From positions 4,820 through 68,819 of the forward strand of contig JAGWKM010000003.1 in assembly GCA_028865305.1 (NCBI GenBank): a stretch of DNA of 64,000 bases. The letters are read 5' to 3'. The notes under the pieces were generated by a model that was given only the letters and a program-made list of their open reading frames with translations, made no database searches and was not told the DNA's origin. Below are positions 4,964-61,923 of this stretch, in pieces; within the stretch, counting starts at the first letter, position 1, and each line of letters opens with the position of its first letter. The stretch comes from Patescibacteria group bacterium. Lineage in GTDB: Bacteria; Patescibacteriota; Minisyncoccia; UBA6257; 2-01-FULL-56-20. Both the position numbers and the translations under genes were made by a program.

Positions 4964-5047
4964 AAAAACAACCGCTTCATTGCGATCGCGCAATAAGCGG
5001 ACATTTTTGAATATGGTAGAATATTCATAATTCTTTATTTTTTTCTC

Positions 5048-5524
5048 ATGAAATCCATGCCAGTCATCATTTTCCTCTCGGCGGCGCTTGTGGTCCTCGT
5101 ACTGCTCTACCTGGGCTACCTTTTCTTTTTTCCGCACGTGAACCCGCCTCTTGTACAAAACGCGGTGATCATCGGGGACAATACGTTCGACGTGGAGATC
5201 GCTTCGACGACCATGGAAAAGACGCTGGGGCTTTCGGGGCGCAACGGGCTCGGCGCAAACCAGGGGATGCTTTTCATTTTCAGCGATCCGGGAGTGCAGC
5301 ACTTCTGGATGAAGGATATGAAGTTTTCGATTGACATTATCTGGATCTCGGATGACCGGGTGGCGGGGTTTGTGCAGAATGCGGCGCCGGAACCCGGCGT
5401 GCCGCTCTGGAACCTGCAGATCTATAATTCGCCGGATTCCGTGGATAAGGTGCTGGAAGTGGATGCGGGGACAGTGGCAAAAGACAACATCAAAATAGGG
5501 GACAGCGTGAGCGTGCGGAGTTGA
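5048..5524 (+). CDS. DUF192-domain protein with N-terminal membrane anchor
   Basis: LGLSGR...GMLFIF......FWMKDMKFSIDIIWI pattern is typical of DUF192 (COG1430). Confidence 0.7.
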   Translation: MKSMPVIIFLSAALVVLVLLYLGYLFFFPHVNPPLVQNAVIIGDNTFDVEIASTTMEKTLGLSGRNGLGANQGMLFIFSDPGVQHFWMKDMKFSIDIIWISDDRVAGFVQNAAPEPGVPLWNLQIYNSPDSVDKVLEVDAGTVAKDNIKIGDSVSVRS

Positions 5525-14209: not shown

Positions 14210-15634
14210 ATGGAACATAGGCATAAAAAAATCGCAATCCTCGGTTTCGGCAAAGAAGGATATTCGGCGCTCCGGTTTTTGCGGCGCGAACCGCGGTACC
14301 GGCATTCTGATATTTGGATCCTTGATAAGAATGAAAATATAAAGCTGCCCCGCGGCGTTTTTTCACAGCTCGGAGAACATTATCGGGAAGGCCTGGATCG
14401 CTTCGACCTCGTCATCCGTTCGCCGGGGATCTGTTATAAAGCATCAAACGCGACCAGTCCGACCAGAATCTTTTTCGAACATTGCCCGGCGCCGATCATC
14501 GGCGTGACGGGGACGAAGGGAAAGGGAACGACGTCAACGTTGATATATAAGATTCTGAGGGAATGGAGAATGGAGAATGGAGAATGGAATAAAGTTTTTC
14601 TCGTGGGGAATATCGGGAAACCGGCACTGGATATCCTGCCGAAATTGGATAAGAAATCAATTGTTGTCTATGAAATGTCGAGCTTCCAATTGGTCGACTT
14701 GAGACAGAGCCCGCATATCGCGGTGGCGCTCATGATCACTTCGGAACACCTTGATTGGCATAAGAACGTCAAAGAATATCGCGACGCGAAATCGAATATC
14801 GTGAGATACCAGCAAGCAAAAGATTTCGCAGTGTTGGCGCAGGATTATCCAGCAAGCCGGGCTTTCGCAAAATTGACTAAGACAAGCATTTTTTCATTCA
14901 CCCGAAGCGCTGCGCTAAAAAAGGATTATATCCGACGATCGTCCAATCTAATCCTTCGGGGCGCATGGGTTGAGGACGGCTGGTTCTACTTTTCGGATGG
15001 AAAAAAGAAGGAGAAAATTTGCGCGACGGCGGATCTGCAGATACCCGGCGAGCACAACTGGGAAAACGTCGGCGCGGCAATCACGGTGGCGAAGATTCTA
15101 AAAGTGCCGAACGGGGTCATTGCGGAAACGATCCGCAGGTTCAAAGGATTAGAGCACCGGCTCGAATTTGTCGCAAAAAAAGACGGAATCCGCTTCTACA
15201 ATGATTCATATTCCACGACGCCGGAAACGGCGATTGCCGCAATCAGAGCATTCAAGGAACCGAAAATCCTGATCCTCGGCGGTTCATCAAAGGGCAGTGA
15301 TTTCAGGGAATTGGGAGAGGTCATTTCGAAATCGGGCAGCATCCGGGGAATCATCGGGATCGGTGTCGAATGGAAAAGGATAAAGGAGGCAATTCCGACG
15401 CGAAGGCGGAAGGCCATTTCCGCAGATAGAATTTCGTCGCAGGCCGCCGGCCATGAATCAGCGATCCCGGTCGTCGAGAACTGCAAAACCATGAATCAGA
15501 TCGTCCGGGCCGCAAGAAAGCTCGCAAAACCGGGCGATGTAGTCCTCTTGTCGCCGGGTTGCGCCTCGTTCGGAATGTTTAAGAATTACAGCGACCGCGG
15601 CGTGCAGTTCAAGCGAGAGGTGAATGGTGTATAA
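14210..15634 (+). CDS. murD: UDP-N-acetylmuramoylalanine--D-glutamate ligase
   Basis: KIAILGFGKEGYS, GVTGTKGKGTTSTL, GLEHRLEFV and SPGCASFGMFKNYSDRG are classic MurD/Mur-ligase motifs. Confidence 0.9.
   Translation: MEHRHKKIAILGFGKEGYSALRFLRREPRYRHSDIWILDKNENIKLPRGVFSQLGEHYREGLDRFDLVIRSPGICYKASNATSPTRIFFEHCPAPIIGVTGTKGKGTTSTLIYKILREWRMENGEWNKVFLVGNIGKPALDILPKLDKKSIVVYEMSSFQLVDLRQSPHIAVALMITSEHLDWHKNVKEYRDAKSNIVRYQQAKDFAVLAQDYPASRAFAKLTKTSIFSFTRSAALKKDYIRRSSNLILRGAWVEDGWFYFSDGKKKEKICATADLQIPGEHNWENVGAAITVAKILKVPNGVIAETIRRFKGLEHRLEFVAKKDGIRFYNDSYSTTPETAIAAIRAFKEPKILILGGSSKGSDFRELGEVISKSGSIRGIIGIGVEWKRIKEAIPTRRRKAISADRISSQAAGHESAIPVVENCKTMNQIVRAARKLAKPGDVVLLSPGCASFGMFKNYSDRGVQFKREVNGV
14557..14590. 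repeat. GAGAATG-family heptad array in frame inside murD
   Basis: gagggaatggagaatggagaatggagaatggaat encodes REWRMENGEWNK just after the P-loop region. Confidence 0.9.
14921..14956. repeat. Family-C palindrome copy 1 (imperfect), in frame inside murD
   Basis: aaggattatatccgacgatcgtccaatctaatcctt encodes KDYIRRSSNLIL. It is related to the copies at 34854 and 57573. Confidence 0.75.
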
Positions 15635-15711
15635 TGAGAAAAATGGAAAATGTATAATGGAGAATGTGTAATGGGTTGACCCATTCTACATTCTTCGTTA
15701 TACATTCTACT
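15621..15711. repeat. Heptad-periodic hairpin element (purine arm / GGGTTGACCC centre / pyrimidine arm) between murD and gap
   Basis: tgaatggtgtataatgagaaaaatggaaaatgtataatggagaatgtgtaatgggtt | gacccattctacattcttcgttatacattctac. Contains the murD stop codon (TAA 15632-15634). Confidence 0.85.
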
Positions 15712-19791: not shown

Positions 19792-20019
19792 CGCCGCTCC
19801 AAGCCGAGCTTGACCGGATTTGTCAGGCAACCGACCAGAAATGGCCGGTTTATTTTTTATTACATTCATCCGGAAATTGAGTATCAGGACCGGCGGGATT
19901 GCCGAATAATCCGGCTCTTTTTGCACATGCGGCTTTCTCCTTCTGGGGCGGGGTATGTTATTATTTTATGAACGGAGGAGCTGGGTTTTTTCGTAATGAA
20001 TTGGGCATTTATACGCAGC

Positions 20020-20135
20020 AGAATGGAGAATGCATAACCCTCTCCATTCTCCATTCTCCATTCTCCATTCTCCATTCTCCATTCTCCATTCTCCATTCTC
20101 CATTCTCCATTCTCCATTCTCCATTCTCCATTCTC
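20020..20135. repeat. Tandem array (CTCCATT)x13 with a short complementary GAATGGAGAATG arm upstream
   Basis: 13 exact units counted from 20042 to 20132. Ends 19 nt before the rpiB ATG. Confidence 0.95.
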
Positions 20136-20153
20136 TTTTTCTACTTCTCCACA

Positions 20154-21123: not shown

Positions 21124-21240
21124 GACGGAGAACGGAGCATAGAGAATGGGGTATAGCATAGGTTGCCCATTCTCCATTCTTCGATCTCCATTCTCCGTTA
21201 TTCATTCTCCATTCTCCATTCTCCATTGCCCATTCTGCCT
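21124..21240. repeat. Heptad-periodic hairpin element in the divergent intergenic region
   Basis: gacggagaacggagcatagagaatgggg...ttgcccattctccattcttcgatctccattctccgttattcattctccattctccattctccattgcccattctgcc. Confidence 0.85.
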
Positions 21241-22368: not shown

Positions 22369-23954
22369 TTTACGTAGAACACGCTGCTGCTCGGCGTGCC
22401 TTTCGGAATTTCACCGGTCTCGTCAGGCAGAAGATAGGTGATATGGCGCGCCAGTTGCGTTGACGTAGTGAACGAATCGGTCACGAACATCACGGTTTCC
22501 GCCGGCACCGGAATGCCGCGCGCGATGACGCCGCCCGCTTCGACAACTACGTATTTCGGCTCACCCAGCGGCAAGGCGTTGATTTGGTTCCCGATCGCAA
22601 CGTAATCTGCGTTGAAAGCTCCCGGCACGTTTGAATTTTCGGCCCAGACGACGAAGTAATCATAGTAGGCATAAATCGCAACGGCCGCCAAAAAAACAGC
22701 CGCAATCACCGGAGGGAGCCATTGAAGACGATCTTTAAAAAAGACGGCCCTTAAGGATCGATACGCCCAAATGCCGCCGATGGCGGCAAAGATCACGGTT
22801 GGCGGCAGCATGAGAATCGACCGGAGCGCGTGCGGGATGCCTTCGTCCGACGCGGCGGCGGGAAGGAGCGCAAGGAGGAACCAGGAGAGGAGAAGCGAAG
22901 TGACAAATGACAAATGACTCATGACAAACGAACGCCTTGATTTCCAAAGCTGATAAATGCTCCAGATGATTCCGGTTATAAATAATATTCCCACGGGCCA
23001 CCAGAGTTCCGGCGCGCTCGCGATGTTCTGCCGCCAATTGTTGTCGCCGCGGACATTCAGCATAAGCAAAGTTTTCGCGACATTTGTCATGAAGTCGCCG
23101 ATCGGATTTTTCGCGTTGGTAACCGCAATTTGCGACGTCCTGCCGAAGAAATCACCGGGATGCTGGAGGAAGTAGACGCCGATCGGCAGGGCTATGATGA
23201 AAGCGGCGAAACAGAATAAAAGCATTTTTTTCCAAAAGCCCGGCGTTTTCCGGAAGAACGGGATGAAAAGCAAAAAGAGCAGGGGAGTGATGCGGTAGGC
23301 GATGTAGGTGTAAAAACCGAGGCCGTAGATGATGCCGGCGGAGATGATACAGAGCATGGAGAATGGAGAATGGAGAATGGAATATTCCCCGTTCAGTCCT
23401 CCGTCCTCCGTCCTCCGTCCTCGGAGCCCCTTCAGCAAAAAATACACTGCCCAAACGAGGCAAAGCGGCGCCAAAATTGCCCGGAATCCGATCCTCGAAA
23501 AAATGATATGCCAAAAACTGGTTGCGAGGAGAAAAGCGGAGAGGAGGGCAAGCACAGGACCCGGAAATTCGAACCCGGAGAATGGAATGCTGCCGGCTTC
23601 CGTTTCCGGGCTTCCGCTTTCCCTTTTTTTAAATAACTCCGCAACCAGGAAATACATTCCGAACACCGTGAGTATTCCCGCAATCGCCGCCGGCAGGCGG
23701 ACGACCCACGGCTCATGCCCGAACCATTTGATGAAAAAGACCAATATGTTCACGTAAAGCCCTTCCCGGCCGTTGTCCTCGACATAGAACGGCTGGAACG
23801 AAGCGGTGCCGTGGACGATTTCGAGCGCATTGTTGCCGTCCATCGCCTCGTCCGGATAAAGTCCCGGAGGTGTCGCCGTGATGTGATATAATCGAAGGAA
23901 GGCGGCAAATACAAGGATACCGACGAGCAGCAGAACTTTAATGCCGGTGCGCAT
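22365..23954 (-). CDS. Family-39 glycosyltransferase (ArnT/PMT-like)
   Basis: RLYHITATPPGLYPDEAMDGNNALEI N-terminal loop motif and more than 10 TM segments. Confidence 0.8.
   Translation of the reverse strand: MRTGIKVLLLVGILVFAAFLRLYHITATPPGLYPDEAMDGNNALEIVHGTASFQPFYVEDNGREGLYVNILVFFIKWFGHEPWVVRLPAAIAGILTVFGMYFLVAELFKKRESGSPETEAGSIPFSGFEFPGPVLALLSAFLLATSFWHIIFSRIGFRAILAPLCLVWAVYFLLKGLRGRRTEDGGLNGEYSILHSPFSMLCIISAGIIYGLGFYTYIAYRITPLLFLLFIPFFRKTPGFWKKMLLFCFAAFIIALPIGVYFLQHPGDFFGRTSQIAVTNAKNPIGDFMTNVAKTLLMLNVRGDNNWRQNIASAPELWWPVGILFITGIIWSIYQLWKSRRSFVMSHLSFVTSLLLSWFLLALLPAAASDEGIPHALRSILMLPPTVIFAAIGGIWAYRSLRAVFFKDRLQWLPPVIAAVFLAAVAIYAYYDYFVVWAENSNVPGAFNADYVAIGNQINALPLGEPKYVVVEAGGVIARGIPVPAETVMFVTDSFTTSTQLARHITYLLPDETGEIPKGTPSSSVFYVK
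22900..22930. repeat. CATTTGT-family heptads in frame inside the GT39 gene
   Basis: gtgacaaatgacaaatgactcatgacaaacg. The coding strand gives SFVMSHLSFVTS. Confidence 0.8.
23355..23423. repeat. Two adjacent heptad arrays (GAGAATG x3-4, then GTCCTCC x4) in frame inside the GT39 gene
   Basis: catggagaatggagaatggagaatggaatat ... gtcctccgtcctccgtcctccgtcctcg. The coding strand gives RRTEDGGLNGEYSILHSPFSM. Confidence 0.9.
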
Positions 23955-23980: not shown

Positions 23981-24128
23981 ACTAATATCTAATTAATAAT
24001 TAATAACGAATGTCCAAGGTTAAATTTCCAACGGACATTCGGTCATTATCCATTCGTTATTAATTATTAATTAGAAATTTCCCCAACAATCCATTCGTTA
24101 TTAATTAGATATTATTAATTAGAAATTT
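23981..24128 (+). repeat. Family-A AT-rich palindromic element, copy A1 (full length)
   Basis: 22-bp perfect inverted repeat AATTAATAATTAATAACGAATG (23991-24012) / CATTCGTTATTAATTATTAATT (24051-24072) with a 38-nt loop. A third arm follows after AGAAATTTCCCCAACAATC. Confidence 0.9.
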
Positions 24129-24135
24129 ACCTCTC

Positions 24136-24552: not shown

Positions 24553-24566
24553 TGTAATGGTCAGTC

Positions 24567-24600
24567 CATTTGTCATTTGTCATTTGTCATTTGTCATTTG
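24567..24600. repeat. Tandem (CATTTGT)x~5 immediately upstream of pilC
   Basis: catttgtcatttgtcatttgtcatttgtcatttg ends 7 nt before ATG 24608. Confidence 0.9.
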
Positions 24601-24607
24601 ATCACCC

Positions 24608-25734: not shown

Positions 25735-25885
25735 GATTAATAATATCTAATTAATAACGAATGGATTGTTGGGGAAATTTCTAATTAATAATTAATAATT
25801 AATAACGAACGCCTAATGCTCGAATGTCCATCAGACATTTCTCCTTGGATATTCGTTTTAATTATTAATTAGACATTATTAATTT
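25735..25885 (-). repeat. Family-A element, copy A2 (inverted relative to A1)
   Basis: ttaataatatctaattaataacgaatggattgttggggaaatttctaattaataattaataattaataacgaa...attcgttttaattattaattag. The head is the reverse complement of the A1 tail. Confidence 0.88.
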
Positions 25886-32461: not shown

Positions 32462-32638
32462 GACGTAATAGGATAGCGAGGTGGACGCCGCTAACGACGG
32501 CTTGGCTGGATGGGGGAATGTAAAAAGGCCCGGCGACATAACGCCCGGCGAAGTAAGGTGGCACCGCGGTCCGAACGCCAGATCGCCCTTACAAAGTCAT
32601 CGAGTCGAGGTGATTTTGTAAGGGCGTTTTGTTTTCTA
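32462..32638 (+). promoter_or_regulatory. T-box riboswitch leader of aspS with terminator
   Basis: T-box sequence AAGTAAGGTGGCACCGCGG (32551-32569). Terminator GCCCTTACAAA...TTTGTAAGGGC plus GTTTTGTTTT (32585-32634). GAC triplets at 32484 and 32496 are specifier candidates. Confidence 0.75.
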
Positions 32639-32722
32639 GTAGAATGTAGAAAGTAGAAGGTAGAAAGGTAGTCTGCTCATTCTCCATCTTCCATTCTCCA
32701 TCTTCCATTCTCCATCCTACTT
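32638..32722. repeat. Heptad-periodic hairpin element between the T-box terminator and the aspS start
   Basis: tagaatgtagaaagtagaaggtagaaaggtagtctgctcattctccatcttccattctccatcttccattctccatcctac. Confidence 0.85.
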
Positions 32723-34146: not shown

Positions 34147-34222
34147 AATAGTTAATCGTAGAATGTATAATGGAGAATGAAGAACGTATAATGGGTTAAC
34201 CCATTCTCCATTCTCCATTTCC
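34144..34222. repeat. Heptad-periodic hairpin element (centre GGGTTAACCC) between aspS and ndk
   Basis: tagaatagttaatcgtagaatgtataatggagaatgaagaacgtataatgggtt | aacccattctccattctccatttcc. Contains the aspS stop TAG and ends at the base before the ndk ATG. Confidence 0.9.
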
Positions 34223-34892: not shown

Positions 34893-35402
34893 ATGGAACT
34901 CGATCCGCGGTTACATTTTGTAGTGGTGACGGGGATTGTGGCGAAGTTGGAAAATGGGACGCCAAAATTCCTGATCGCGAAGCGCGCACCGACGGAAAAA
35001 GCGTTCCCGAACAAATGGACCGTGCCGGGCGGCAAGCTCGTGCGGACCGAATATGAAAATTTGCCCAAGCGGCCGTATGTGGAAGGCCAGAAGCCGAGCG
35101 AGGCGCCGCAGTGGTATAACCTGGTTGAATGGGTGTTGCGGAAGGAAGTGATGGAAGAAGTGAACGTCGAAATCGAATCGCCGAAATATCTGACTGATCT
35201 TGTCTTTATCCGCCCCGACGGTTATCCCGTCGCCACGCTTTCCTATTGGGCGATGTACAAATCCGGAGACCCCAAGCCGGGCAAGGATTTAACGGAGGTG
35301 GCCTGGGTCACCGCCGCCGAGGCGAAGCAGCATGACATGATAGAGGGCATTCCGGAGGAAATCGCGGAGGTGGAGAGGATAATTGTAGAACGTATAATGT
35401 AG
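34893..35402 (+). CDS. NUDIX hydrolase
   Basis: WTVPGGKL ... LRKEVMEEVNVEI form a Nudix box split by an insertion. Confidence 0.7.
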   Translation: MELDPRLHFVVVTGIVAKLENGTPKFLIAKRAPTEKAFPNKWTVPGGKLVRTEYENLPKRPYVEGQKPSEAPQWYNLVEWVLRKEVMEEVNVEIESPKYLTDLVFIRPDGYPVATLSYWAMYKSGDPKPGKDLTEVAWVTAAEAKQHDMIEGIPEEIAEVERIIVERIM

Positions 35403-35416
35403 AATGTAGAATGGGA
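35383..35416. repeat. Purine-type half-arm of a heptad palindrome (left flank of 4HB cassette 1)
   Basis: ttgtagaacgtataatgtagaatgtagaatggg. Contains the NUDIX stop TAG. Confidence 0.8.
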
Positions 35417-35438
35417 TTAAAAAATTATTAAATAACTT

Positions 35439-35467
35439 TTGCAGACTTCAGATCCACATGCTATGAA
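35439..35467 (+). promoter_or_regulatory. Cassette-borne promoter TTGCAG-N17-TATGAA, 6 nt before ATG 35474 (leaderless)
   Basis: Read directly. Homologous in position to the promoter of the second cassette (38887-38914). Confidence 0.55.
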
Positions 35468-35473
35468 TGGCAT

Positions 35474-35881
35474 ATGGCAACTCAAAAAATTGAACAATTT
35501 ACCGATCTCAACGCATGGAAAGAATCTCACAAATTAGCCTTATTTGTTTATAAAGCAACAAAAATCTTCCCCAAGGAAGAAATGTTTGGGTTAGCGAACC
35601 AGATGAGACGGGCCGCCGTCTCGATCACTTCAAATATTGCTGAAGGATTCGGAAGGCGAAGCAGCAAGGAAAAGCTCCAGTTTTATTATCTTTCCAAGGG
35701 TTCTTTAAACGAAGAAAAGAACCAGCTTTTAATATCCCGTGATGTCGGATATTTGGAAAACGATCTTTTTACAGAAGGTATGAAGCAAGCCAATATTGCG
35801 GATCAATTATTACAAGGATTAATTCGTTCTGCGGCATTGAGGACTGGCTCTTATTTCCGTAATAATACCTCCAGCCACTGA
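35474..35881 (+). CDS. Four-helix-bundle protein (23S rRNA intervening-sequence protein / Avd-like family), copy 1
   Basis: FTDLNAWKESHKLALFVYKATKIFPKEEMFGLANQMRRAAVSITSNIAEGFGRRS.KE...FYYLSKGSLNE is the TIGR02436/PF05635 signature. AT-rich. Confidence 0.85.
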   Translation: MATQKIEQFTDLNAWKESHKLALFVYKATKIFPKEEMFGLANQMRRAAVSITSNIAEGFGRRSSKEKLQFYYLSKGSLNEEKNQLLISRDVGYLENDLFTEGMKQANIADQLLQGLIRSAALRTGSYFRNNTSSH

Positions 35882-36459
35882 ACGCCCCGCAATTCCTGCA
35901 GCCCATTTTTGACGATGATAAATTTTCCAGCCAGTTCTTCTATATCTTTTTGAGAGTAGAAATAAAACATCCTTTTTCCAAACTTGTCCTCCTTCAATAT
36001 TTTTTCGTAATTATCCTTATGCTTTAAAGAAATGCGCATTGCGCCGCCTTCATTAAGTGCCGCATATGAATGCGCCAGGATCTCTTTCAAGCTTTCCTTT
36101 GGTACATGAAGCAGCGAAGCAAAGGCAAAAATTATATCCAAACCATCCGGGAAAAAAAAGTTTTCTATGTCCGCAACCTCAAACCGGCCGTTTGGCACTT
36201 TCCTTTTGGCGAGCGCAATCATCCCTTCGGAAATATCTATGCCTAGATAATCATTCGTTTCCTTGATAATTTCCTCTGTGTCCCTGCCATTCCCGCAGCC
36301 GATTTCCAGAATTTTCGGATTTATTTTATCTACAAGCTGAAAGGTTTCTCTTATATCAGAAATCCGCACTCCTATTTCATCAAATTTGGCAGCGAGCTGA
36401 TGCGCGCTATTATTGTAAGCATCAACCGTTTGCGATTTTTCCTCCTGAAAATTATTCAT
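35851..36459 (-). CDS. Class I SAM-dependent methyltransferase
   Basis: ILEIGCGNGRDT (motif I) and LDIIFAFASLLH. Its 3' end overlaps the 4HB gene by 31 nt (convergent). AT-rich. Confidence 0.8.
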   Translation of the reverse strand: MNNFQEEKSQTVDAYNNSAHQLAAKFDEIGVRISDIRETFQLVDKINPKILEIGCGNGRDTEEIIKETNDYLGIDISEGMIALAKRKVPNGRFEVADIENFFFPDGLDIIFAFASLLHVPKESLKEILAHSYAALNEGGAMRISLKHKDNYEKILKEDKFGKRMFYFYSQKDIEELAGKFIIVKNGLQELRGVQWLEVLLRK

Positions 36460-36506
36460 GATTTTCAACTGAATATGGGATGAAACGTAGAATACAAAAA
36501 GAGTCC

Positions 36507-36540
36507 GCCCATTATACATTCTCCATTATACATTCTTCCT
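36507..36540. repeat. Pyrimidine-type half-arm of a heptad palindrome (right flank of 4HB cassette 1)
   Basis: gcccattatacattctccattatacattcttcc. Contains the prfA stop (TAA on the minus strand, 36526-36528). Confidence 0.8.
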
Positions 36541-37260
36541 TTCCAAAAACGCTTTCACGATGGGATCCATATCACCTTCTAAAATCTTTTCAATATTATG
36601 CCATTTTTTGCCGATGCGGTGGTCGGTGATGCGATCGTCGGGGAAGTTGTAAGTGCGGATTTTTTCGGAGCGGTCGGCGGAGCCGATTTGCTCGCGGCGG
36701 AGGTCGGTGACGGAACCGGTGGCCCGTTGCTGTTCGATCTCCCAGAGCTTGGCGCGCAGGATGTCGAGCGCCTTTTCGCGGTTTGCGTGTTGGGAGCGTT
36801 CTTCACGCGAGCTGACGACGATGCCGGTGGGTTTGTGCAGGATGCGCACGGCAGTTTCCACTTTGTTGACGTTTTGGCCGCCAGGGCCGCCGGCGCGCGA
36901 GAAAGTGACTTCGAGGTCGTTCGGATTGATGTTCACTTCGCGCGCCTCGACGATCGGCAAGACCGCGACCGAGGCCGTTGAAGTGTGCACGCGCCCGGAT
37001 TTTTCGGTCGAGGGCACCCGCTGTACGCGATGCACGCCGGATTCATATTGGAAGGCCTCATAGCTGCCCTGGCCTTCGATTTCCGCCACGAGAGATTTGA
37101 ACCCGTTCAAGGTGCTTTCATTTTTATCGAGAACCGAAAACCGCCAGCCGCGTTTAGCCGCATAGCGCTGGTACATCCGACCCAGGTCTCCGGCAAAAAG
37201 CGACGCCTCATCGCCGCCCGCCCCCGCCCGGATTTCAAGAATAAGCTTGTTGGTGGTCAT
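36526..37260 (-). CDS. prfA: Peptide chain release factor 1-type protein lacking N-terminal domain 1
   Basis: Starts at [26 protein letters not shown], which aligns with E. coli RF1 around residue 107. Has the [17 protein letters not shown] (PxT-type tripeptide), [20 protein letters not shown] (GGQ) and [15 protein letters not shown] motifs. Confidence 0.8.
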
Positions 37261-38075: not shown

Positions 38076-38120
38076 GAAAACTGGTTGTAAGTATAGAAGA
38101 TATTGTTTAAAATATCCATT

Positions 38121-38879
38121 ATGATTTCATTTTCGGGCGTGACGAAGTCCTATGGCAAAGGCAAAAAGCTACGGACCGTGGTGGACGATTTCACGCTGGA
38201 TGTCGACGTGCCGATTTTCGGCTTTTTAGGGCAAAACGGGGCTGGGAAGACGACTATCATGAAAATGACGGTAGGATTGCTCATGCCGACTGCGGGAACG
38301 ATCGGGATTGACGGCGTCCCGTCGCAAAGCGCCGCGGCAAAGTCCAAAATTGGCTTCATGCCCGAAACACCGTATTTTTATGAGCGGATGACGGGAATTG
38401 ATTTCCTGCGGTTCTGCGATGAACTGTATGGCAGCCCCGAAAAGGACCATCGGGGGCGCTACGAAACCATTCTGAAAAAAGTCGGCATTTTCGAGGCGCG
38501 CAGCCAGGAGATCCGCACCTATTCAAAGGGCATGCGCCAGCGGTTGGGGTTTGCGCAAGCGCTCGTGAACGATCCGGAATACCTGTTTTTGGATGAGCCG
38601 CTCGACGGCCTGGATCCGCTCGGCCGGCGCGAGATGAAGGCGGTGATGTTGCGGCTGAAAAGCGAAGGCCGGAAGATTTTTCTCAATACCCACATCCTCT
38701 ATGATGTCGAAGAGATCTGTGACGAGGTGGGTATCATTCACGAAGGGAAATTATTATACGCCGGCGGCGTGAAGGAATTTTGCGCGGGGAAGCCGCTCGA
38801 GGAGCGGTTTGTGGAAACGGTCACGGGTGCGAAGAATGGAGTACGGAGAATGGAGAATGAATTATTAAAAATTCATTAA
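38121..38879 (+). CDS. ABC transporter ATP-binding protein
   Basis: Walker A GQNGAGKTT, signature YSKGMRQRLGFA and Walker B LFLDEPLDGLD. The C-terminal tail GAKNGVRRMENELLKIH is encoded by a heptad array plus the cassette edge. Confidence 0.88.
   Translation: MISFSGVTKSYGKGKKLRTVVDDFTLDVDVPIFGFLGQNGAGKTTIMKMTVGLLMPTAGTIGIDGVPSQSAAAKSKIGFMPETPYFYERMTGIDFLRFCDELYGSPEKDHRGRYETILKKVGIFEARSQEIRTYSKGMRQRLGFAQALVNDPEYLFLDEPLDGLDPLGRREMKAVMLRLKSEGRKIFLNTHILYDVEEICDEVGIIHEGKLLYAGGVKEFCAGKPLEERFVETVTGAKNGVRRMENELLKIH
38829..38866. repeat. GAGAATG-type purine arm at the left flank of 4HB cassette 2
   Basis: gcgaagaatggagtacggagaatggagaatgaatt. Confidence 0.8.
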
Positions 38880-38886
38880 ATAACAT

Positions 38887-38914
38887 TTGCAAATTAAAAC
38901 GCACATGCTATGAC
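38887..38914 (+). promoter_or_regulatory. Cassette-borne promoter TTGCAA-N16-TATGAC, 6 nt before GTG 38921 (leaderless)
   Basis: Read directly. The flanking sequence ATTAAATAAC.TTTGCA......CACATGCTATGA is shared with cassette 1. Confidence 0.55.
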
Positions 38915-38920
38915 GAAGAT

Positions 38921-39289
38921 GTGGAAAATAGAATCAAAAAGTTTACCGATCTCAACGCATGGAGAGAAGCCCATAAGCTTGTTTTGTATATTTATAGAAT
39001 TACAAGGTCGTTTCCTAAAGAGGAAATTTTTGGTTTAACAAATCAAATGAGACGGGCAGCTGTATCTATAACTTCAAATATTGCAGAGGGATTTGGAAGA
39101 CGCAGTTTTAAGGACAAAGCACGGTTTTATTATTTGGCAAAGGGATCGATAAACGAAGAGAAAAATCAAATTTTGATTTCTCATGACATCGATTATTTAT
39201 GCGATGCTGAATTTCAGGAAGGTATACAGCAGGCTGACATTGCAGATCAACTTTTACAGGGTTTAATTAATTCAACAGAAAAAGGATAA
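38921..39289 (+). CDS. Four-helix-bundle protein (23S rRNA IVS / Avd-like family), copy 2
   Basis: FTDLNAWREAHKLVLYIYRITRSFPKEEIFGLTNQMRRAAVSITSNIAEGFGRRS. Paralogue of the 35474 gene with high identity by eye. AT-rich; GTG start. Confidence 0.85.
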   Translation: MENRIKKFTDLNAWREAHKLVLYIYRITRSFPKEEIFGLTNQMRRAAVSITSNIAEGFGRRSFKDKARFYYLAKGSINEEKNQILISHDIDYLCDAEFQEGIQQADIADQLLQGLINSTEKG

Positions 39290-39290
39290 T

Positions 39291-39354
39291 GATGGAGGTG
39301 GAATTGGGGTGATTTTATCCCATTCTCCATTCTCCATTCTCTATCCTCCATCCC
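39291..39354. repeat. Heptad hairpin / pyrimidine arm at the right flank of 4HB cassette 2
   Basis: gatggaggtggaattggggtgattttatcccattctccattctccattctctatcctccatccc ends at the base before ATG 39355. Confidence 0.8.
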
Positions 39355-40119
39355 ATGCGCAACATCTGGATTATCGCCAAAAACACTTTTAAGCTTGAGA
39401 TCAAAGACCGCATCTGGATCGGCATCCTGGTCTTCGGCATTTTTTACGTCGTGCTCACCTTGTTCCTTTCCGACCTGGTCCTCCGCGAACTGCCCATGGT
39501 GAAAAGTTTCGGCCTTACCGGCATTTATTTCTTCAACGCGATCGTGGCGCTTTTCCTCGGCACGACGTCGTTCTACAAAGATGTGGACCGCAAGACGGTT
39601 TACTTCATCCTATCGAAGCCGGTGTCGCGCGCGCAGTTTCTGGCGGGAAAATTCCTCGGGCTCTGCCTGCTGCTTTTCGTCACGACCGCCATTTTGGCCG
39701 TCGGCTATTTGGCCGTCATCGCCTGGAATGGCGGCGGGTTTGACGCGATCGGTTTGCTTGCGATTGCGATGCAATTCTTGGAAATGGCGCTTTTTGTGGC
39801 GTTCGCGATTTTCGTCTCGACGTTTTCGAGCTCGCTGCTTTCGATCGTTTACACCTCCGCCGTTTTTTTCCTCGGCCATATCGTGAGCGCGCTTCTCGCT
39901 GATGCGCGCGAACTTGGCCTCGGCGGCATCCAATATTTCTTCGTGCAGGTTTTGTATTACGTATTCCCGAACCTTGAGAAATTCGACCTCCGCGGCATGG
40001 CAGTGCATGCCGTCGCGCTGCCCGGCGATGCATTCGTGCTGGCGCTCATTTACGCCGCCGCATATATCGCGCTGCTCTTAATGGCAAGCATGTGGGTGTT
40101 TGAGAAGAAAGAGATTTGA
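39355..40119 (+). CDS. ABC-2-type transporter permease
   Basis: Six TM segments. Position and size fit a permease partner of the 38121 ATPase. Confidence 0.7.
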   Translation: MRNIWIIAKNTFKLEIKDRIWIGILVFGIFYVVLTLFLSDLVLRELPMVKSFGLTGIYFFNAIVALFLGTTSFYKDVDRKTVYFILSKPVSRAQFLAGKFLGLCLLLFVTTAILAVGYLAVIAWNGGGFDAIGLLAIAMQFLEMALFVAFAIFVSTFSSSLLSIVYTSAVFFLGHIVSALLADARELGLGGIQYFFVQVLYYVFPNLEKFDLRGMAVHAVALPGDAFVLALIYAAAYIALLLMASMWVFEKKEI

Positions 40120-40128
40120 TGTGAATGA

Positions 40129-40214
40129 CTAATTAATAATTAATAACGAATGCCCAATATCGGAATGCCCAACGGATATTATGCATTGGACATTCGTTAT
40201 TAATTATTAATTAG
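40129..40214. repeat. Family-A element, copy A3 (hairpin module only)
   Basis: Perfect 24-bp inverted repeat CTAATTAATAATTAATAACGAATG / CATTCGTTATTAATTATTAATTAG with a 38-nt loop. Confidence 0.9.
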
Positions 40215-40233
40215 ACATTAGCCATTTCAAAAA

Positions 40234-49703: not shown

Positions 49704-50966
49704 GTGAAACGCAAGGATTACAAAAAACTGCCGGAGACGCCGGGCGTTTATCTCATGAAAGATACCGGCGGCAAAATCCTCTATGTCGGCAAAGCGGGCA
49801 ACCTGCGCCGGCGGGTTTCAAGCTATTTTGAACGGCCCCATGACGTGCGGATCGAGAAACTGGTAAGCAAGATAGCGAGCATCGATTTTGAAGAAACCGA
49901 TTCGACCCTTGAAGCCCTGATCCGCGAAGCCCGGCTCATCCGCGAACTCACACCGCCCTTCAACGTGAAGGAAAAAGACGATAAGAGTTTTTTATACATC
50001 GAGATCACGAAGGAAAAATTTCCCCGCGTGCTTTTGGCGCGCGGGCATGATGTAGGAACAGGAAACAGGAAACCGGGAACAGGGAACCTATTTGGGCCGT
50101 TTACCTCGGCAACGGGCGCGCGAGAGGCATTGCGGATTTTAAGGAGAATTTTCCCGTGGAGCACGCACGAAACCGAAGGGAAAAGCGGAAAGAAAAAAGA
50201 AAAAAGGGCGTGCTTCGATTACGAACTCGGTCTTTGCCCCGGAACCTGCATCGGCGCCATCAGCGAGCGGGAGTATAAAAAGAACATTGCCCATCTGAAG
50301 CTCTTCCTCGAGGGCAAGAAAAAAAAGCTGATCGCCGCGCTCGAAAAAGAAATGGCGGCGGCGGCCAAAACTATGGAATTCGAAAAAGCGGCAAAACTGC
50401 GCGGCCAGGTTTTTGCGTTGAAGCACATAAGAGATACGGCACTGATGGGGAAAGAGGAGAATGGAGAATGGAGGACGGAAAATGGAACAAGGTTTCGCAT
50501 CGAGGGCTACGACATATCGAATATTTCCGGCACTGCAGCCGTGGGGTCGATGGTGGTTTTCGAAAATGACCAGCCGGATAAAAATGAATACAGGAAGTTC
50601 AAAATAAAAACGGTATTCCAACCCAACGATGTCGGTATGCTCACGGAAATGCTTGAGCGGCGTTTTCGCCATTCTCCCGTTCTCCGTTCTCCGTTCTCCA
50701 TTTTGCACCCATGGCCTCTCCCCGGCCTCATCCTCATCGACGGCGGTTTGGCGCAGGTGAATGCGGCAAACAAAGTGCTGCTCCGCGCCGGGCTGAAAAT
50801 ACCGGTCGTCGGTATCGCGAAAGGCCCGGAACGGAAGCGGAACGACATCATCGGCCTCGTGCCGAAGGGCGTAAAAAAGGAAACACTGATCCGGGTGCGG
50901 AACGAGGCGCACAGGTTCGCGATCAGTTATCACAAAAAATTGAGAGGCGTAAACGCGCTGCATTGA
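49704..50966 (+). CDS. uvrC: Excinuclease ABC subunit C, short form without the C-terminal (HhH)2
   Basis: GIY-YIG PGVYLMKDTGGKILYVGKAGNLRRRV, UVR motif MEFEKAAKLRGQVFAL, and endonuclease part IEGYDISNISG ... RVRNEAHRFAISYH. GTG 49704 chosen because TTG 49629 lies inside the upstream terminator. Confidence 0.88.
   Translation: MKRKDYKKLPETPGVYLMKDTGGKILYVGKAGNLRRRVSSYFERPHDVRIEKLVSKIASIDFEETDSTLEALIREARLIRELTPPFNVKEKDDKSFLYIEITKEKFPRVLLARGHDVGTGNRKPGTGNLFGPFTSATGAREALRILRRIFPWSTHETEGKSGKKKEKRACFDYELGLCPGTCIGAISEREYKKNIAHLKLFLEGKKKKLIAALEKEMAAAAKTMEFEKAAKLRGQVFALKHIRDTALMGKEENGEWRTENGTRFRIEGYDISNISGTAAVGSMVVFENDQPDKNEYRKFKIKTVFQPNDVGMLTEMLERRFRHSPVLRSPFSILHPWPLPGLILIDGGLAQVNAANKVLLRAGLKIPVVGIAKGPERKRNDIIGLVPKGVKKETLIRVRNEAHRFAISYHKKLRGVNALH
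50054..50087. repeat. GGAACAG-family heptads in frame inside uvrC
   Basis: aggaacaggaaacaggaaaccgggaacagggaacc encodes GTGNRKPGTGN. Confidence 0.85.
50454..50488. repeat. GAGAATG-family purine array in frame inside uvrC
   Basis: gaggagaatggagaatggaggacggaaaatggaac encodes [11 protein letters not shown]. Confidence 0.85.
50668..50703. repeat. Complementary pyrimidine array in frame inside uvrC
   Basis: gccattctcccgttctccgttctccgttctccattt encodes HSPVLRSPFSIL. Roughly complementary to the 50454 array ~180 nt upstream. Confidence 0.85.
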
Positions 50967-53853: not shown

Positions 53854-53998
53854 AAATTTCTAATATCTAATTAATAATTAATAACGAATGTCTAAAGTTA
53901 AATTTCCAACGGACATTTGGCATTACACATTCGTTATTAATTAGTCATTATTAATTAGATATTTCCCCAACAACACATTCGTTATTAATTAGAAATTT
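53854..53998 (+). repeat. Family-A element, copy A4 (full length)
   Basis: gaaatttctaatatctaattaataattaataacgaatg...cattcgttattaattag...atttccccaacaacacattcgttattaattagaaattt. Confidence 0.9.
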
Positions 53999-54040
53999 GG
54001 AGCGTTATTGATTGATTACCCGGCGCAAAACCAACGAGCG

Positions 54041-54763
54041 ATGAAAAATATTATTGATTGCAAAAACATCCAAAAGACTTACGGCGCAGGCGACACGGCG
54101 ACCGTGGTCCTGAAGGGCGTAACGTTCTCCGTAAAGGAGGGGGAGTTTGTGGCGATCATGGGGCCGTCCGGTTCCGGCAAATCAACGTTGATGCACATCA
54201 TCGGCTGTCTCGATACGCCGACCGGCGGGGAATATTTGATTGACGGCAGGGATGTTTCCAAGTTAAGCGATGACGAACTTGCCGATATCCGTCGCGAGAA
54301 GATCGGTTTCGTCTTCCAGGCGTTTAATCTTTTGCCGCGAACGACTGTCCTGCGGAATGTTTCGTTGCCGCTCATTTATGAAGGTGTCGAGAAAACGAAA
54401 CGCGAAGGGATTGCCGAAAGGGCATTGGCCGATTCCGCTTTTCCGCAGAAATTTTGGTACCACCATTCAAACCAGCTTAGCGGCGGTATGATGCAGCGCG
54501 TGGCGATCGCCCGGTCGCTCGTCAATAATCCGGCGCTCATTTTGGCGGACGAGCCGACCGGCAACCTGGATTCAAAGACCGGCGAGACCGTCCTCGGTAC
54601 GTTCCAAAACCTGAATGAGAAGCAAGGCAAGACGATCGTCTTGATCACCCATGAGCGCTATGTCGCCGAACACGCCGACCGGATCATCCATATTTTAGAC
54701 GGGAAGATCGTGCAGGAGGAGTCGAATGGCGTGCACCAGAGGAAAGCGACAATCAATGTCTAA
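54041..54763 (+). CDS. MacB/LolD-type ABC transporter ATP-binding protein
   Basis: GPSGSGKSTLMHIIG, LSGGMMQRVAIARSL and LILADEPTGNLD. Confidence 0.9.
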   Translation: MKNIIDCKNIQKTYGAGDTATVVLKGVTFSVKEGEFVAIMGPSGSGKSTLMHIIGCLDTPTGGEYLIDGRDVSKLSDDELADIRREKIGFVFQAFNLLPRTTVLRNVSLPLIYEGVEKTKREGIAERALADSAFPQKFWYHHSNQLSGGMMQRVAIARSLVNNPALILADEPTGNLDSKTGETVLGTFQNLNEKQGKTIVLITHERYVAEHADRIIHILDGKIVQEESNGVHQRKATINV

Positions 54764-54906
54764 TGTCTAATTAATAATTAATAACGAATGTGTAAAGTTA
54801 AATTTCCAACGGACATTCGGACATTATCCATTCGTTATTAATTATTAATTAGATATTTCCCCAACAATCCATTCGTTATTAATTAGGCATTATTAATTAG
54901 AAATTA
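54758..54906 (+). repeat. Family-A element, copy A5 (full length; overlaps the ATPase stop codon)
   Basis: gtctaatgtctaattaataattaataacgaatg...cattcgttattaattattaattag...atttccccaacaatccattcgttattaattaggcattattaattag. Confidence 0.9.
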
Positions 54907-54909
54907 CGT

Positions 54910-56154
54910 ATGACGACCAGCGATATTTTTGAAGAAACTTATTCAGCCGTGACGGTCAATAAGGTCAGATCGGGCTTAACGATGCTCGGCATCGTGATCG
55001 GCATCGCTTCGGTGATCGCCTTGACCGCCGTCGGCCAGGGCGCCCAAAGTTCGATCCAGTCAAGCATTCAATCGCTTGGCTCGAACCTGCTCATCGTAAT
55101 GCCGGGCGCTTCGAAATCATTCGGTTCCACGGTGAGTGCGGGTCTCGGCAGTGCTGAAACGTTAACGCCGGATGATGCCACGGCCATCAGTCAATTGCCC
55201 GGCGTGAGCGCCGTCGCGCAAGAAGTGAGCGGCCGCTATCAGGTCGTCTACGCAGGCACCAACACGAACGTCAGCGTTCTCGGCACCACGTCCGCTTATC
55301 CCATCGTGCGCAACGTACAGATCGACCAGGGAAATTTCATCACCGACCAGGATGTCGCCGAATCGAACCGTATTGCGGTAATCGGCCCGACCGTTTTGCA
55401 AACATTATGGAATCCGTCAGGCAATGCGACAGCCACGCCCGACATGGCAATCGGCCAGATGATCCGCATCAAAGGTGTTGATTTTACCGTTATCGGCGTG
55501 ACAGTTTCAAAAGGCGGCACCGGCTTCAATAACCAGGACAATATGATTTACGTGCCGCTCTCAACCGCCCAGCATTATCTCATTGGAAACAGTTCTTATA
55601 TCACCGAAGCCGACGTGGAGGCCCAGGATGCGCAATCAATGACGAACGTGCAGGATGAAATTACGCAGCTTTTACTCCAGCGGCACAATATCAGCGACCC
55701 GACGCAAGCCGATTTCAACGTACTGAACCAGGCGGATATCGTCGCGGCCGCTTCATCTGTTACTGGAACTTTCACGACTTTGCTTGCCGCGATCGCCGGC
55801 ATTTCGCTCCTCGTCGGCGGCATCGGCATCATGAACATGATGCTCACGACCGTCACCGAGCGAACGCGCGAAATCGGCTTGCGCAAGGCGATTGGCGCCA
55901 AGCGGCACGATATCACGATGCAATTCCTGGCCGAATCCGTTACGCTCACGTTCGGTGGCGGCGCTATTGGCATTATCCTCGGTTGGCTTGGCGCAATCGC
56001 GATATCTTCGTTCACCGGTACCGCAACAACCATTTCGCTCGGTTCGATCATTTTGGCTTTCTGTGTCTCTGCCGGAATCGGGATCGTGTTCGGCTATTAT
56101 CCGGCAAGGCGGGCGGCAGGGCTGAATCCGATAGAAGCTCTGAGATATGAGTGA
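54910..56154 (+). CDS. MacB-type ABC transporter permease (FtsX family with large extracytoplasmic domain)
   Basis: TM1, then a ~230-aa MacB_PCD-like domain, then three TMs with the FtsX motif RTREIGLRKAIGAKR. C-terminal PIEALRYE. Confidence 0.88.
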   Translation: MTTSDIFEETYSAVTVNKVRSGLTMLGIVIGIASVIALTAVGQGAQSSIQSSIQSLGSNLLIVMPGASKSFGSTVSAGLGSAETLTPDDATAISQLPGVSAVAQEVSGRYQVVYAGTNTNVSVLGTTSAYPIVRNVQIDQGNFITDQDVAESNRIAVIGPTVLQTLWNPSGNATATPDMAIGQMIRIKGVDFTVIGVTVSKGGTGFNNQDNMIYVPLSTAQHYLIGNSSYITEADVEAQDAQSMTNVQDEITQLLLQRHNISDPTQADFNVLNQADIVAAASSVTGTFTTLLAAIAGISLLVGGIGIMNMMLTTVTERTREIGLRKAIGAKRHDITMQFLAESVTLTFGGGAIGIILGWLGAIAISSFTGTATTISLGSIILAFCVSAGIGIVFGYYPARRAAGLNPIEALRYE

Positions 56155-56234: not shown

Positions 56235-56388
56235 ACTAATTAATAATATCTAATTAATAACGAATGCATTGTTGGGGAAATTTCTAATTAATAATATCTA
56301 ATTAATAACGAATGAATAATGTTCGAATGTCCGTTGGAAATTTAACCTTGGACATTCGTTATTAATTATTAATTAGATATTAGAAATT
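56235..56388 (-). repeat. Family-A element, copy A6 (inverted relative to A4/A5)
   Basis: ctaattaataatatctaattaataacgaatgcattgttggggaaatttctaattaataatatctaattaataacgaatg...cattcgttattaattattaattag. Confidence 0.9.
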
Positions 56389-56417
56389 ACAAAAGGTCGT
56401 CGATACAGAAACAAATT

Positions 56418-58946: not shown

Positions 58947-59009
58947 AATGTATAAAGCGGAATGTATAATGGTTTACCCCCTCTGCTTTCTACGTTATAC
59001 ATTCTGCCC
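58943..59009. repeat. Heptad-periodic hairpin element between the S41 peptidase gene and rplI
   Basis: gtagaatgtataaagcggaatgtataatggtttaccccctctgctttctacgttatacattctgccc. Contains the peptidase stop TAG. Confidence 0.85.
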
Positions 59010-61856: not shown

Positions 61857-61923
61857 GGGGAGAATGAAGAATGAAGAACGAAAAATGGGTAAACCATTCT
61901 GCCTTCTCCAATCTACTTTCTGC
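61857..61923. repeat. Heptad-periodic hairpin element immediately upstream of rpmA (minus strand)
   Basis: ggggagaatgaagaatgaagaacgaaaaatgggtaaaccattctgccttctccaatctactttctgc. Confidence 0.85.

Follow-up and report, generated by a model that had tools for sequence, protein, structure and literature searches.

We analyzed a 64,000-nt stretch of a Patescibacteria contig (JAGWKM010000003.1, positions 4,820 to 68,819; hereafter designated as the window) and found that both genes for four-helix-bundle (4HB) proteins encoded there lie between two convergent arrays of 7-nt units (heptads). One of them, hb1, is located between a NUDIX gene and a release-factor gene (element 1; 35385-36538), and the other, hb2, between the genes for an ABC ATPase and a permease (element 2; 38831-39354). 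The two elements are best filed as elements of the intervening sequence (IVS) type residing outside rRNA genes, the IVSs of rRNA genes being known to carry an open reading frame (ORF) of the same family, PF05635. An earlier examination of element 1 from its letters alone (the sequence-only reading) had regarded it as a mobile cassette targeting the tips of DNA hairpins. That interpretation is partly supported here, and the underlying finding is real and more general than was held.

Heptad-bracketed 4HB genes and the corresponding sites in relatives

In both elements, a G-rich array is placed on the 5' side and a C-rich array on the 3' side, each comprising about 4-5 units (28-35 nt; Table 1). 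A repeat search delimited the arms of element 1 as 35387-35415 and 36508-36536 (29 nt, 90% complementary and 1092 nt apart), in agreement with the facing arms that the sequence-only reading had recognized at 35383-36540. The NUDIX gene takes its last codons and stop codon from the left arm, and the release-factor gene takes its last four codons and stop codon from the right arm. As had also been described, the DNA between the arms is AT-richer than its surroundings (GC content of 0.33-0.45 versus 0.53-0.64 in the flanks) and carries hb1 together with a convergent gene for an S-adenosylmethionine (SAM)-dependent methyltransferase, both assignments being backed by profile matches. The only solved structure matched by hb1 was PDB 2GSC (E = 9.4e-20), which is XCC0516 of Xanthomonas. 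The hb1 product has an atypical C-terminal tail, and this part of hb1 extends over the 3' end of the methyltransferase gene. Excision in silico, which had been predicted to rejoin the arms, gave a hairpin of -14.9 kcal/mol (z = -7.75). The arms also hold perfect TATAAT hexamers (in GTATAAT units) that point inward, at 35392-35398 in the left arm toward the 4HB gene and at 36511-36517 and 36525-36531 (minus strand) in the right arm toward the methyltransferase gene.

A tblastn search with the 4HB protein detected exactly one further copy in the window, hb2, the product of which shares 71% identity with that of hb1. This copy, flanked by the genes for the ABC ATPase (38103-38879) and an ABC-2 permease (39355-40119), is bracketed in the same manner by arms of 27 nt, and both the minimum-energy and the centroid RNA folds of element 2 are closed by these arms. 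The two elements are 73% identical over 433 nt of DNA, and the homology begins at the arm boundary: the inserted segments open with the same sequence directly after the arm (ATTA(TT)AAAAATT.ATTAAATAAC). Common to both is a leader of 58-61 nt, in which we read the motifs TTGCA(G/A), a spacer of 16-17 nt, TATGA(A/C), 6 nt and the start codon. In element 1, a -35-like TTGCAG (35439-35444) is followed after 17 nt by a -10-like TATGAA (35462-35467), with the ATG 6 nt further on. The motif block of the leaderless promoter that had been proposed for hb1 is kept in the second copy, albeit as a reading of motifs; a sigma-70 consensus scanner made no call there and instead called TGGAGA-16-TATAAT at 35371-35398, in which the -10 hexamer belongs to a left-arm heptad. 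The segment preceding the right arm of element 1 aligned with the 3' end of element 2 too weakly for use. The GC content was 0.35-0.42 in the element DNA against about 0.55 in the host DNA. The ORF list and Pfam assignments contained no transposase, integrase or reverse transcriptase inside either element, as the sequence-only reading had remarked.

The gene order aspS-ndk-NUDIX, facing a release-factor gene, is kept in the relatives of this bacterium. In two of them (L197 and L198; NUDIX 85% and 80% identical, respectively), the NUDIX gene and the release-factor gene share about 20 nt at their 3' ends, with nothing in between. Among 27 more distant, species-representative relatives, 13 have the two stop codons -20 to +14 nt apart without a palindrome, while varied cargo without a 4HB gene was found between the two genes in the other 14. 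The closest relative (L081-L084; NUDIX 93% identical) possesses in this slot another methyltransferase gene (33% identical), accompanied by neither a 4HB gene nor heptad arms. Since the genes of the relatives overlap or lack arms at this site, the comparison indicates that the whole block of 35385-36538, arms included, is an insertion at the NUDIX/release-factor junction, and that the arms replaced the last codons of both host genes. That the half-arms bound one inserted block was therefore borne out; this rests on the ancestral state of the site rather than on the similarity between the two arms, as the arms are not partner-specific (see below). No target-site duplication was recognized at the junctions of element 1 (compared with the uninterrupted L197 and L198) or element 2, apart from possibly 1-2 T. 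The search for empty sites, which the sequence-only reading had called for, gave a divided result: no relative shows an empty palindrome at the NUDIX/release-factor site, where we found only nothing, or other cargo or a methyltransferase without arms, but an intact ORF-less palindrome does occur at the ABC junction.

At the ABC junction, the closest relative (L169/L170; permease 88% identical) possesses a heptad palindrome without ORF, in which GAAAAAT-type units face ATTTTTC-type units across a loop of about 30 nt. The right arm of this palindrome, together with a short preceding segment, aligns to 39295-39350 of the window and, in L169, is homologous by position to that of element 2; the homology on the left runs through AATGAATT. 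The loop retains short stretches like both ends of the internal segment of element 2. Between the window and L169/L170, the units of the two arms have changed in step (GGAGAAT to GAAAAAT and ATTCTCC to ATTTTTC). In more distant relatives (79%), the junction measures 32-59 nt and contains other palindromes or none. Altogether, two kinds of polymorphism exist in these alignments, namely nothing versus arms plus ORF, and arms only versus arms plus ORF. The 80 loci of NUDIX orthologues from species-representative genomes contained only chance two-unit matches to the GKAKAAT pattern, to which the heptads of the window conform, implying that this unit family is lineage-specific.

We regard the methyltransferase gene as cargo or a later insert that is peculiar to element 1 and stands outside the general unit, because the arms adjoin the 4HB ORF within 0-15 nt at other loci and because the closest relative has a different methyltransferase in the slot without 4HB or arms. 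It accompanies none of the other 4HB copies examined, and element 1 stays the sole cargo-bearing case among these loci; the proposal that the methyltransferase is part of the cassette was not borne out. Cargo was considered for two further loci and rejected, as the distant 'arms' of L109 and L160 are probably separate arrays beside rplL/rplJ and groEL, respectively. The identity of the methyltransferase with PrmC, suggested by the neighboring release-factor gene, was ruled out by the lack of the NPPY motif and a weak match to MTS (E = 4.2e-5). In L081, the methyltransferase gene is flanked by stretches like the 3' end of the release-factor gene (5020-5075 and 5700-5760; TTTCTGCTGGA and GGATCCATGT), a possible trace of its arrival. 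The release-factor gene of the window (36526-37224) matches PCRF over profile positions 109-194 only, giving the impression that the N-terminal domain is lacking or encoded at another place, and the gene appears short in relatives (about 240-270 aa; L082, L171 and L172).

Period-7 arrays at 4HB genes in Patescibacteria, other phyla and rRNA genes

Metagenomes were scanned with an alignment of 4HB sequences, which yielded 80 loci, and 67 4HB genes of Patescibacteria were scored with a generic period-7 detector, along with 96 other ORFs from the same loci as controls; the 67 genes are the best matches to one query, belong to one clade and include a few duplicate contigs, which slightly inflate the counts. 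Arrays were detected upstream of 56, downstream of 59 and on both sides of 51 of the 67 4HB genes. The corresponding figures for the 96 control ORFs were 19, 21 and 7 (Fisher p = 1.7e-20), such that arrays occur at about 20% of the other ORF boundaries in 4HB-bearing contigs. The association between 4HB genes and palindromes, for which the sequence-only reading had suggested scoring further copies, thus held both in hb2 and in this larger sample. When the 200-nt upstream flanks of 65 genes were compared with the reverse-complemented downstream flanks, the best local match had a median of 11.5, whereas the median was 8.5 in each of two controls (direct orientation and mismatched loci). The matched segments were period-7 arrays of lineage-specific units (TGAATAT, GGAATCT, GTAGAAT, AGTATAG, GATTAAG and others), placed mostly 0-15 nt from the start and stop codons of the 4HB gene and often overlapping the start codon. 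G exceeded C in the left arm in 54 of 55 cases, and C exceeded G in the right arm in 53 of 58. The pooled unit logo was G(0.96) W W T(0.83) N W N, with median arm lengths of 28 and 34 nt, corresponding to about 4-5 units.

The 4HB gene was oriented in the same direction as both neighbors in 35 cases and against both in none (p = 6e-11), and in most members the arm lies too close to the ORF to accommodate a promoter. These two features fit the expression of the 4HB gene by read-through from the host operon. No array was found beyond the 4HB region in 10 of 31 4HB contigs, several of which have none in about 6.7 kb. One identical 4HB protein (P0131) was encoded on 24 contigs, flanked by the same two permease genes every time.

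The association is not confined to Patescibacteria. A tblastn search against plasmids yielded 25 records, mostly cyanobacterial, and 14 cyanobacterial or proteobacterial 4HB loci were examined. The detector found arrays at 13 of them, on both sides in 12; L175 was not called, albeit repeated GGAGATA and TCTCCT motifs flank the ORF by eye, and L177, which adjoins an ISL3 transposase, has an array on one side only. In L178, the arrays are long and in direct rather than inverted orientation. The cyanobacterial units include GGGTGTA facing CTACACC (Calothrix and Nostoc punctiforme), GGAGTCA (Aulosira and Nostoc) and eight copies of GGGAGTA (N. edaphicum), and 4HB genes on these plasmids were found inside operons, between cas10 and cmr3, between cas6 and cas4, and between the genes for ribonucleotide reductase (RNR) subunits. 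Individually, the 4HB gene lies between groES and groEL in L160 (1544-1918), between two branched-chain amino-acid permease genes in L179 (3001-3393), between cas10 and cmr3 in L175, and between cas6 and cas4 in both L178 and L196. On plasmids of Calothrix (L173, 387-1409) and N. punctiforme (L190, 1-597), the bracketed 4HB gene is directly downstream of a tyrosine recombinase/integrase gene. A search of phage genomes with hb1 gave no match and hence no control of the type found in diversity-generating retroelements (DGRs).

Two loci connect these genes with rRNA. L195, from Azospirillum lipoferum AZO_p2, is a true 23S rRNA IVS (Rfam LSU, 1142 bits) with arms of 4+4 heptads (GACGGAT GACAGAG GACGGAG GACAGAA facing four inverted units), and L002, the sole 4HB gene among the NUDIX loci, resides within a 16S rRNA gene and has CTGGNNN arms. 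In these rRNA insertions, the arms fall inside the extra sequence that interrupts the rRNA match. The 23S IVS of Coxiella is closed by a 28-bp terminal stem, has two or three tandem GACAGAT heptamers just before its S23p ORF and has been shown experimentally to be excised by RNase III (PMC4990558). The 4HB protein of Xanthomonas is a pentamer according to Lin 2006 as cited in PMC4990558. In X. campestris, the start codon of XCC0516 is overlapped by a four-unit GGGAATC array (repeat #15; PMC4692102 supplement), one of 186 GGGAATC-type arrays in the genome, for which 70 convergent pairs were described, in a study that assigns the arrays no function and does not mention the 4HB family (PMC4692102). 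A GGGAATC array is also placed between groES and groEL in Xanthomonas (PMC4692102 supplement). The origin and function of IVSs have been called unclear, and the role of heptamer repeats treated as unresolved (PMC4990558, PMC4692102, PMC4679880). The overlap between the XCC0516 start codon and repeat #15 and the bracketed cyanobacterial 4HB genes are new relative to PMC4692102 and PMC4679880, neither of which mentions the 4HB family. The searchable literature, which does not cover subscription journals, yielded no paper that links 4HB genes to heptamer repeats in general.

ORF-less palindromes and further repeats in the window

The window contains 49 matches to GTAKAATGTAKAAT with two mismatches or fewer, as opposed to 0.57 expected, and none of 100 shuffles reached this number. 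At least eight palindromes of this family are solo, i.e., ORF-less, versus two that are occupied (Table 1). The two intact palindromes to which the sequence-only reading had referred are present with the centers it gave. One solo palindrome (23351-23425) is translated as a whole within a PMT_2-like ORF on the minus strand.

Table 1. Elements 1 and 2 and the solo heptad sites of the window.
Feature	Position	Strand	Description
Left arm, element 1	35385-35415	+	GTAGAAC GTATAAT GTAGAAT GTAGAAT GGG; four G-rich heptads and GGG
Leader, element 1	35416-35473	+	Homology to leader of element 2 starts at the base next to the arm
hb1 (4HB gene)	35474-35881	+	135 aa; PF05635 E = 3.8e-34, TIGR02436 E = 4.2e-32
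Class-I SAM methyltransferase gene	35851-36459	-	202 aa; Methyltransf_25 E = 1.1e-18; convergent with hb1, inside the arms
Right arm, element 1	36508-36538	-	CCC ATTATAC ATTCTCC ATTATAC ATTCTTC; CCC and four C-rich heptads
Left arm, element 2	38831-38859	+	GAAGAAT GGAGTAC GGAGAAT GGAGAAT G; C-terminal tail of ABC ATPase ORF
Leader, element 2	38860-38920	+	TTGCAA (38887-38892), 16 nt, TATGAC (38909-38914), 6 nt, GTG
hb2 (4HB gene)	38921-39289	+	122 aa; PF05635 E = 2.1e-34, TIGR02436 E = 2.2e-32
Right arm, element 2	39319-39354	-	CCC ATTCTCC ATTCTCC ATTCTCT ATCCTCC ATCCC; runs up to permease start codon
Solo palindrome	15629-15710		Center GGGTTGACCC (AATGGGTTGACCCATT, about 15672-15687); folding z = -6.5
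Solo palindrome, asymmetric	20018-20139		3 G-rich units versus about 13 CATTCTC units
Solo palindrome	21125-21238		Degenerate G-rich arm
Solo palindrome	23351-23425		GGAGAAT x3 / GTCCTCC x3; in frame within minus-strand PMT_2-like ORF
Solo convergent arrays	32638-32720		Upstream of aspS; weak arm pairing, z = -1.2
Solo palindrome	34158-34222		Center GGGTTAACCC (AATGGGTTAACCCATT, about 34189-34204); fills aspS-ndk intergenic gap; z = -4.6
Solo palindrome	58943-59007		
Solo convergent arrays	61858-61909		Weak pairing

Solo palindromes turn over quickly between close relatives. The aspS-ndk palindrome of the window is absent from L081, and a large heptad palindrome of other units (GTATAAG... facing CTTAGAC/TTAGACT...) lies between ndk and NUDIX in L081 (4350-4490), where the window has no array.

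Inside protein-coding genes, heptad arrays also occur in frame, where their read-through gives rise to short inserted peptides. The uvrC ORF contains a G-rich and a C-rich array (50453-50479 and 50675-50704; peptides KEENGEWRTE and SPVLRSPFSIL) on either side of 200 nt of conserved coding sequence, and single arrays were found in a zwf-gnd ORF (13129-13160; SHSPFSIPHSP) and a murD-like ORF (14558-14591; REWRMENGEWNK). A third heptad family, GACAAAT, forms convergent arrays at 22897-22925 (+) and 24565-24602 (-), 1.6 kb apart, and a further period-7 array, (GCTGGTT)6, is present at 10233-10280. The window additionally has a second, unrelated repeat family made of ORF-less composites of 100-190 nt, in which TAATTAA TAATTAA TAACGAA TG arms face their inverse and the loops contain TCCAACGGACATT. 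These composites (23990-24130, 25740-25870, 40120-40215, 53860-54000, 54760-54910 and 56240-56395) are intergenic, e.g., around and between the genes for a MacB-like ABC ATPase and a permease at 54008-56154. An Rfam search of the window matched no family.

Proposed nature of the elements and comparison with known systems

We propose that both 4HB genes of the window are IVS-type elements, each comprising a PF05635 ORF within two convergent heptad arrays between protein-coding genes, and assign this explanation as a whole a probability of roughly 0.55. The arms are most simply taken as part of the element, since they abut the 4HB ORF in nearly all other members; they may have arrived with the ORF, or the ORF may have been gained at or lost from pre-existing palindromes. 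The element would be transcribed together with the host operon, and pairing of the two arrays would enclose the ORF with a stem of about 28 bp. If the rRNA IVSs are a guide, this stem would be cut by RNase III, so that the host messages would remain functional in spite of the insert. The 4HB protein, whose solved relative is a homopentamer, may bind the heptad arrays with about one heptad per subunit, although the correspondence of five subunits with 4-5 units is no more than suggestive. Its action would concern both the arrays beside its own gene and, in trans, the numerous ORF-less palindromes, in a relation similar to that of the REP-associated tyrosine transposases (RAYTs) to the hairpin-forming doublets (REPINs) of repetitive extragenic palindromic (REP) sequences. 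The ORF core would be gained or lost at the hairpin loop. As no recombinase is encoded, the elements probably spread with the help of host functions or by recombination of interchangeable arrays. The methyltransferase of element 1 would be a passenger.

Several observations weigh against this proposal. The mismatches within the arms show no bias toward G:U on the sense strand (44 G:U versus 59 A:C, p = 0.17; most mismatches are A:A or T:T), and they thus give no direct indication that an RNA stem has been selected for. At some solo sites, the convergent arrays scarcely pair (z = -1.2 and -1.9). Within this genome, the arms match non-partner arms as well as their partners, and in element 1 the left arm scores slightly higher with the arm at 15683 (23.5) than with its own right arm (21.5). 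The binding of heptads by the 4HB protein is what we infer, and the unit sequence differs completely between phyla, such that any recognition must co-evolve with the unit. No recent movement is evident, as the two copies are 73% identical and P0131 occurs in one context. In element 1, the methyltransferase gene separates the right arm from hb1, unlike in nearly all other members, and a two-step history of this element is conceivable. Finally, the survey of 67 loci covers the best matches to one query from a single clade, with a few duplicate contigs. Since there is no wobble signal, some sites pair weakly and arms are not partner-specific, what is conserved may be that a unit forms two arrays in convergent orientation, not one given stem. 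Such an arrangement would be what a multimeric repeat-binding protein requires, and would make recombination of arrays between sites possible.

More tentatively, the PF05635 4HB proteins may be the dedicated partner of bacterial heptanucleotide repeats, in a two-part system that extends over Patescibacteria, Cyanobacteria, Alphaproteobacteria and Gammaproteobacteria. In such a system, tandem arrays of 7-nt units would be bound, and maintained or spread, by a pentamer without enzymatic activity, each subunit of which would take up one unit; the gene for the pentamer would be carried within the loop of one such palindrome, with the ORF-less palindromes as satellites. If so, rRNA IVSs, the short tandemly repeated repetitive (STRR) sequences of cyanobacteria, the GGGAATC repeats of Xanthomonas and the excess of heptamers in bacteria would be facets of one system.

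The explanation closest to the sequence-only reading, in which a discrete mobile cassette (4HB gene plus leader, here with a methyltransferase) inserts into the tip of pre-existing heptad hairpins or cruciforms and the arms are the target, appears improbable to us. It would account for the insert of element 1 being placed precisely between the two halves (AATGGG and CCCATT) of the canonical solo center AATGGG-TTRA-CCCATT, and for the two inserted segments starting alike right after the arm. The ORF-less palindrome of L169/L170, with a loop resembling both ends of the internal segment, and the excess of solo over occupied palindromes (at least 8 versus 2) fit as well. Nevertheless, no relative has an empty palindrome at the NUDIX/release-factor site and close relatives lack arms there, the arms of the rRNA insertions lie within the extra sequence, and 10 of 31 4HB contigs have no array beyond the 4HB region, all of which speak against arms as pre-existing targets. 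The methyltransferase is absent from the other 4HB copies examined, the copies are old (73% DNA identity), and no identical copy was found in a second context, the one protein present on 24 contigs always having the same neighbors; there is no sign of recent transposition. An insertion that targets hairpin tips by a new mechanism may yet apply to the gain or loss of the ORF core at the loop.

Somewhat less probable still is that the system is not mobile, the 4HB protein being an accessory regulator, the scattered heptad arrays its operators or RNA-binding sites and the flanking pair a device of autoregulation, with AT-richness and patchy distribution reflecting an accessory gene. The interchangeability of the arrays within the genome, some of which do not pair, their presence at about 20% of other ORF boundaries in 4HB contigs, their frequent overlap with start codons, the strict co-orientation of the 4HB gene with host operons and the stability of the identical copy in one context on 24 contigs would all be expected from a regulator. 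On the other hand, in unrelated lineages, 4HB genes with arrays are lodged in 23S or 16S rRNA genes or flanked by cas, RNR, groES/groEL, liv (branched-chain amino-acid transport) or ABC genes, as insertions in comparison with relatives, their GC content (0.35-0.42) departs from that of the host DNA (about 0.55), and the arms overwrote the 3' ends of host genes. That the arms are unrelated arrays standing by chance on either side of two unrelated genes is scarcely credible and was already disfavored: lone arrays (13129-13160 and 14558-14591), the G-rich and C-rich pair 200 nt apart in uvrC and the lack of partner specificity would allow it, but both 4HB genes of the window are bracketed alike, arrays stand on both sides of 51 of 67 4HB genes compared with 7 of 96 controls, and at the ancestral site the genes overlap, which leaves no space for an array.

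The IVSs of rRNA genes have been known since about 1990 and the STRR heptamers of cyanobacteria equally long, and the S23p/4HB family, including the DGR accessory protein Avd, has been known for two decades. Like the ORF-bearing 23S rRNA IVSs (Coxiella burnetii helix 45, Leptospira and A. lipoferum L195), in which an S23p ORF of about 120-135 aa lies in an element of about 430-530 nt, the elements of the window have complementary terminal arms (about 28 nt), heptamers in tandem immediately ahead of the ORF (GACAGAT in Coxiella; four GACRGAK units on each side in L195) and an ORF co-oriented with the host transcript. They differ in their location between protein-coding genes with no Rfam match in the window, in the methyltransferase gene of one copy and in the promoter-like leader of 58-61 nt between arm and ORF in both copies. 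The excision by RNase III was shown for the Coxiella IVS and would apply to the window elements by analogy. The novelty in kind that had been claimed for element 1 does not hold, as the layout is that of ORF-bearing rRNA IVSs and heptamers were already noted in Coxiella (PMC4990558).

With the heptameric repeats of Xanthomonas (GGGAATC), Nostoc (GGGGAYT), Calothrix (STRR) and Beggiatoaceae (TAACTGA), the arrays of the window share the 7-nt unit, typically about 4 copies, mostly intergenic positions and frequent convergent pairs, often at start codons (PMC4692102, PMC4679880); the units of the window differ in being A+T-rich (GKAKAAT) and unable to form G-quadruplexes. As in the REP/REPIN-RAYT system, many dispersed short extragenic palindromes far outnumber the few genes flanked by inverted repeat copies. 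Unlike RAYTs, the bracketed gene of the window encodes a small helical bundle of which the sole Pfam match is PF05635, with no transposase domain of the HUH/Y1 (IS200/IS605-like) type, and its arms are tandem heptad arrays instead of a unique REP of 20-30 nt.

Avd is a nucleic-acid-binding pentamer. It belongs to the same fold superfamily, and many homologues from the candidate phyla radiation (CPR) have a precomputed PF22296 match, labelled bAvd (weak), beside PF05635. The Avd equivalog profile NF033474 gave only 19.9 bits for hb2 against a cut-off of 80 and no match for hb1. The Pfam assignments and the ORF list of 33-39 kb included no reverse transcriptase among the immediate 4HB neighbors; template and variable repeats were not searched for. 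The lack of a target-site duplication at either junction, the lack of near-identical copies and the internally repetitive arms distinguish the elements from MITEs (miniature inverted-repeat transposable elements) and other non-autonomous transposons, with which they share terminal inverted repeats, small size, intergenic sites and presence or absence between relatives. Altogether, the evidence ties together three threads, namely rRNA IVSs, heptamer repeats and the S23p/4HB family. The 4HB ORF is nearly always bracketed by convergent heptad arrays, in 23S and 16S rRNA genes as well as between ordinary genes, which turns an old descriptive puzzle into testable questions and provides a simple signature for annotating insertions inside cas, groESL, liv, RNR and ABC transporter operons.

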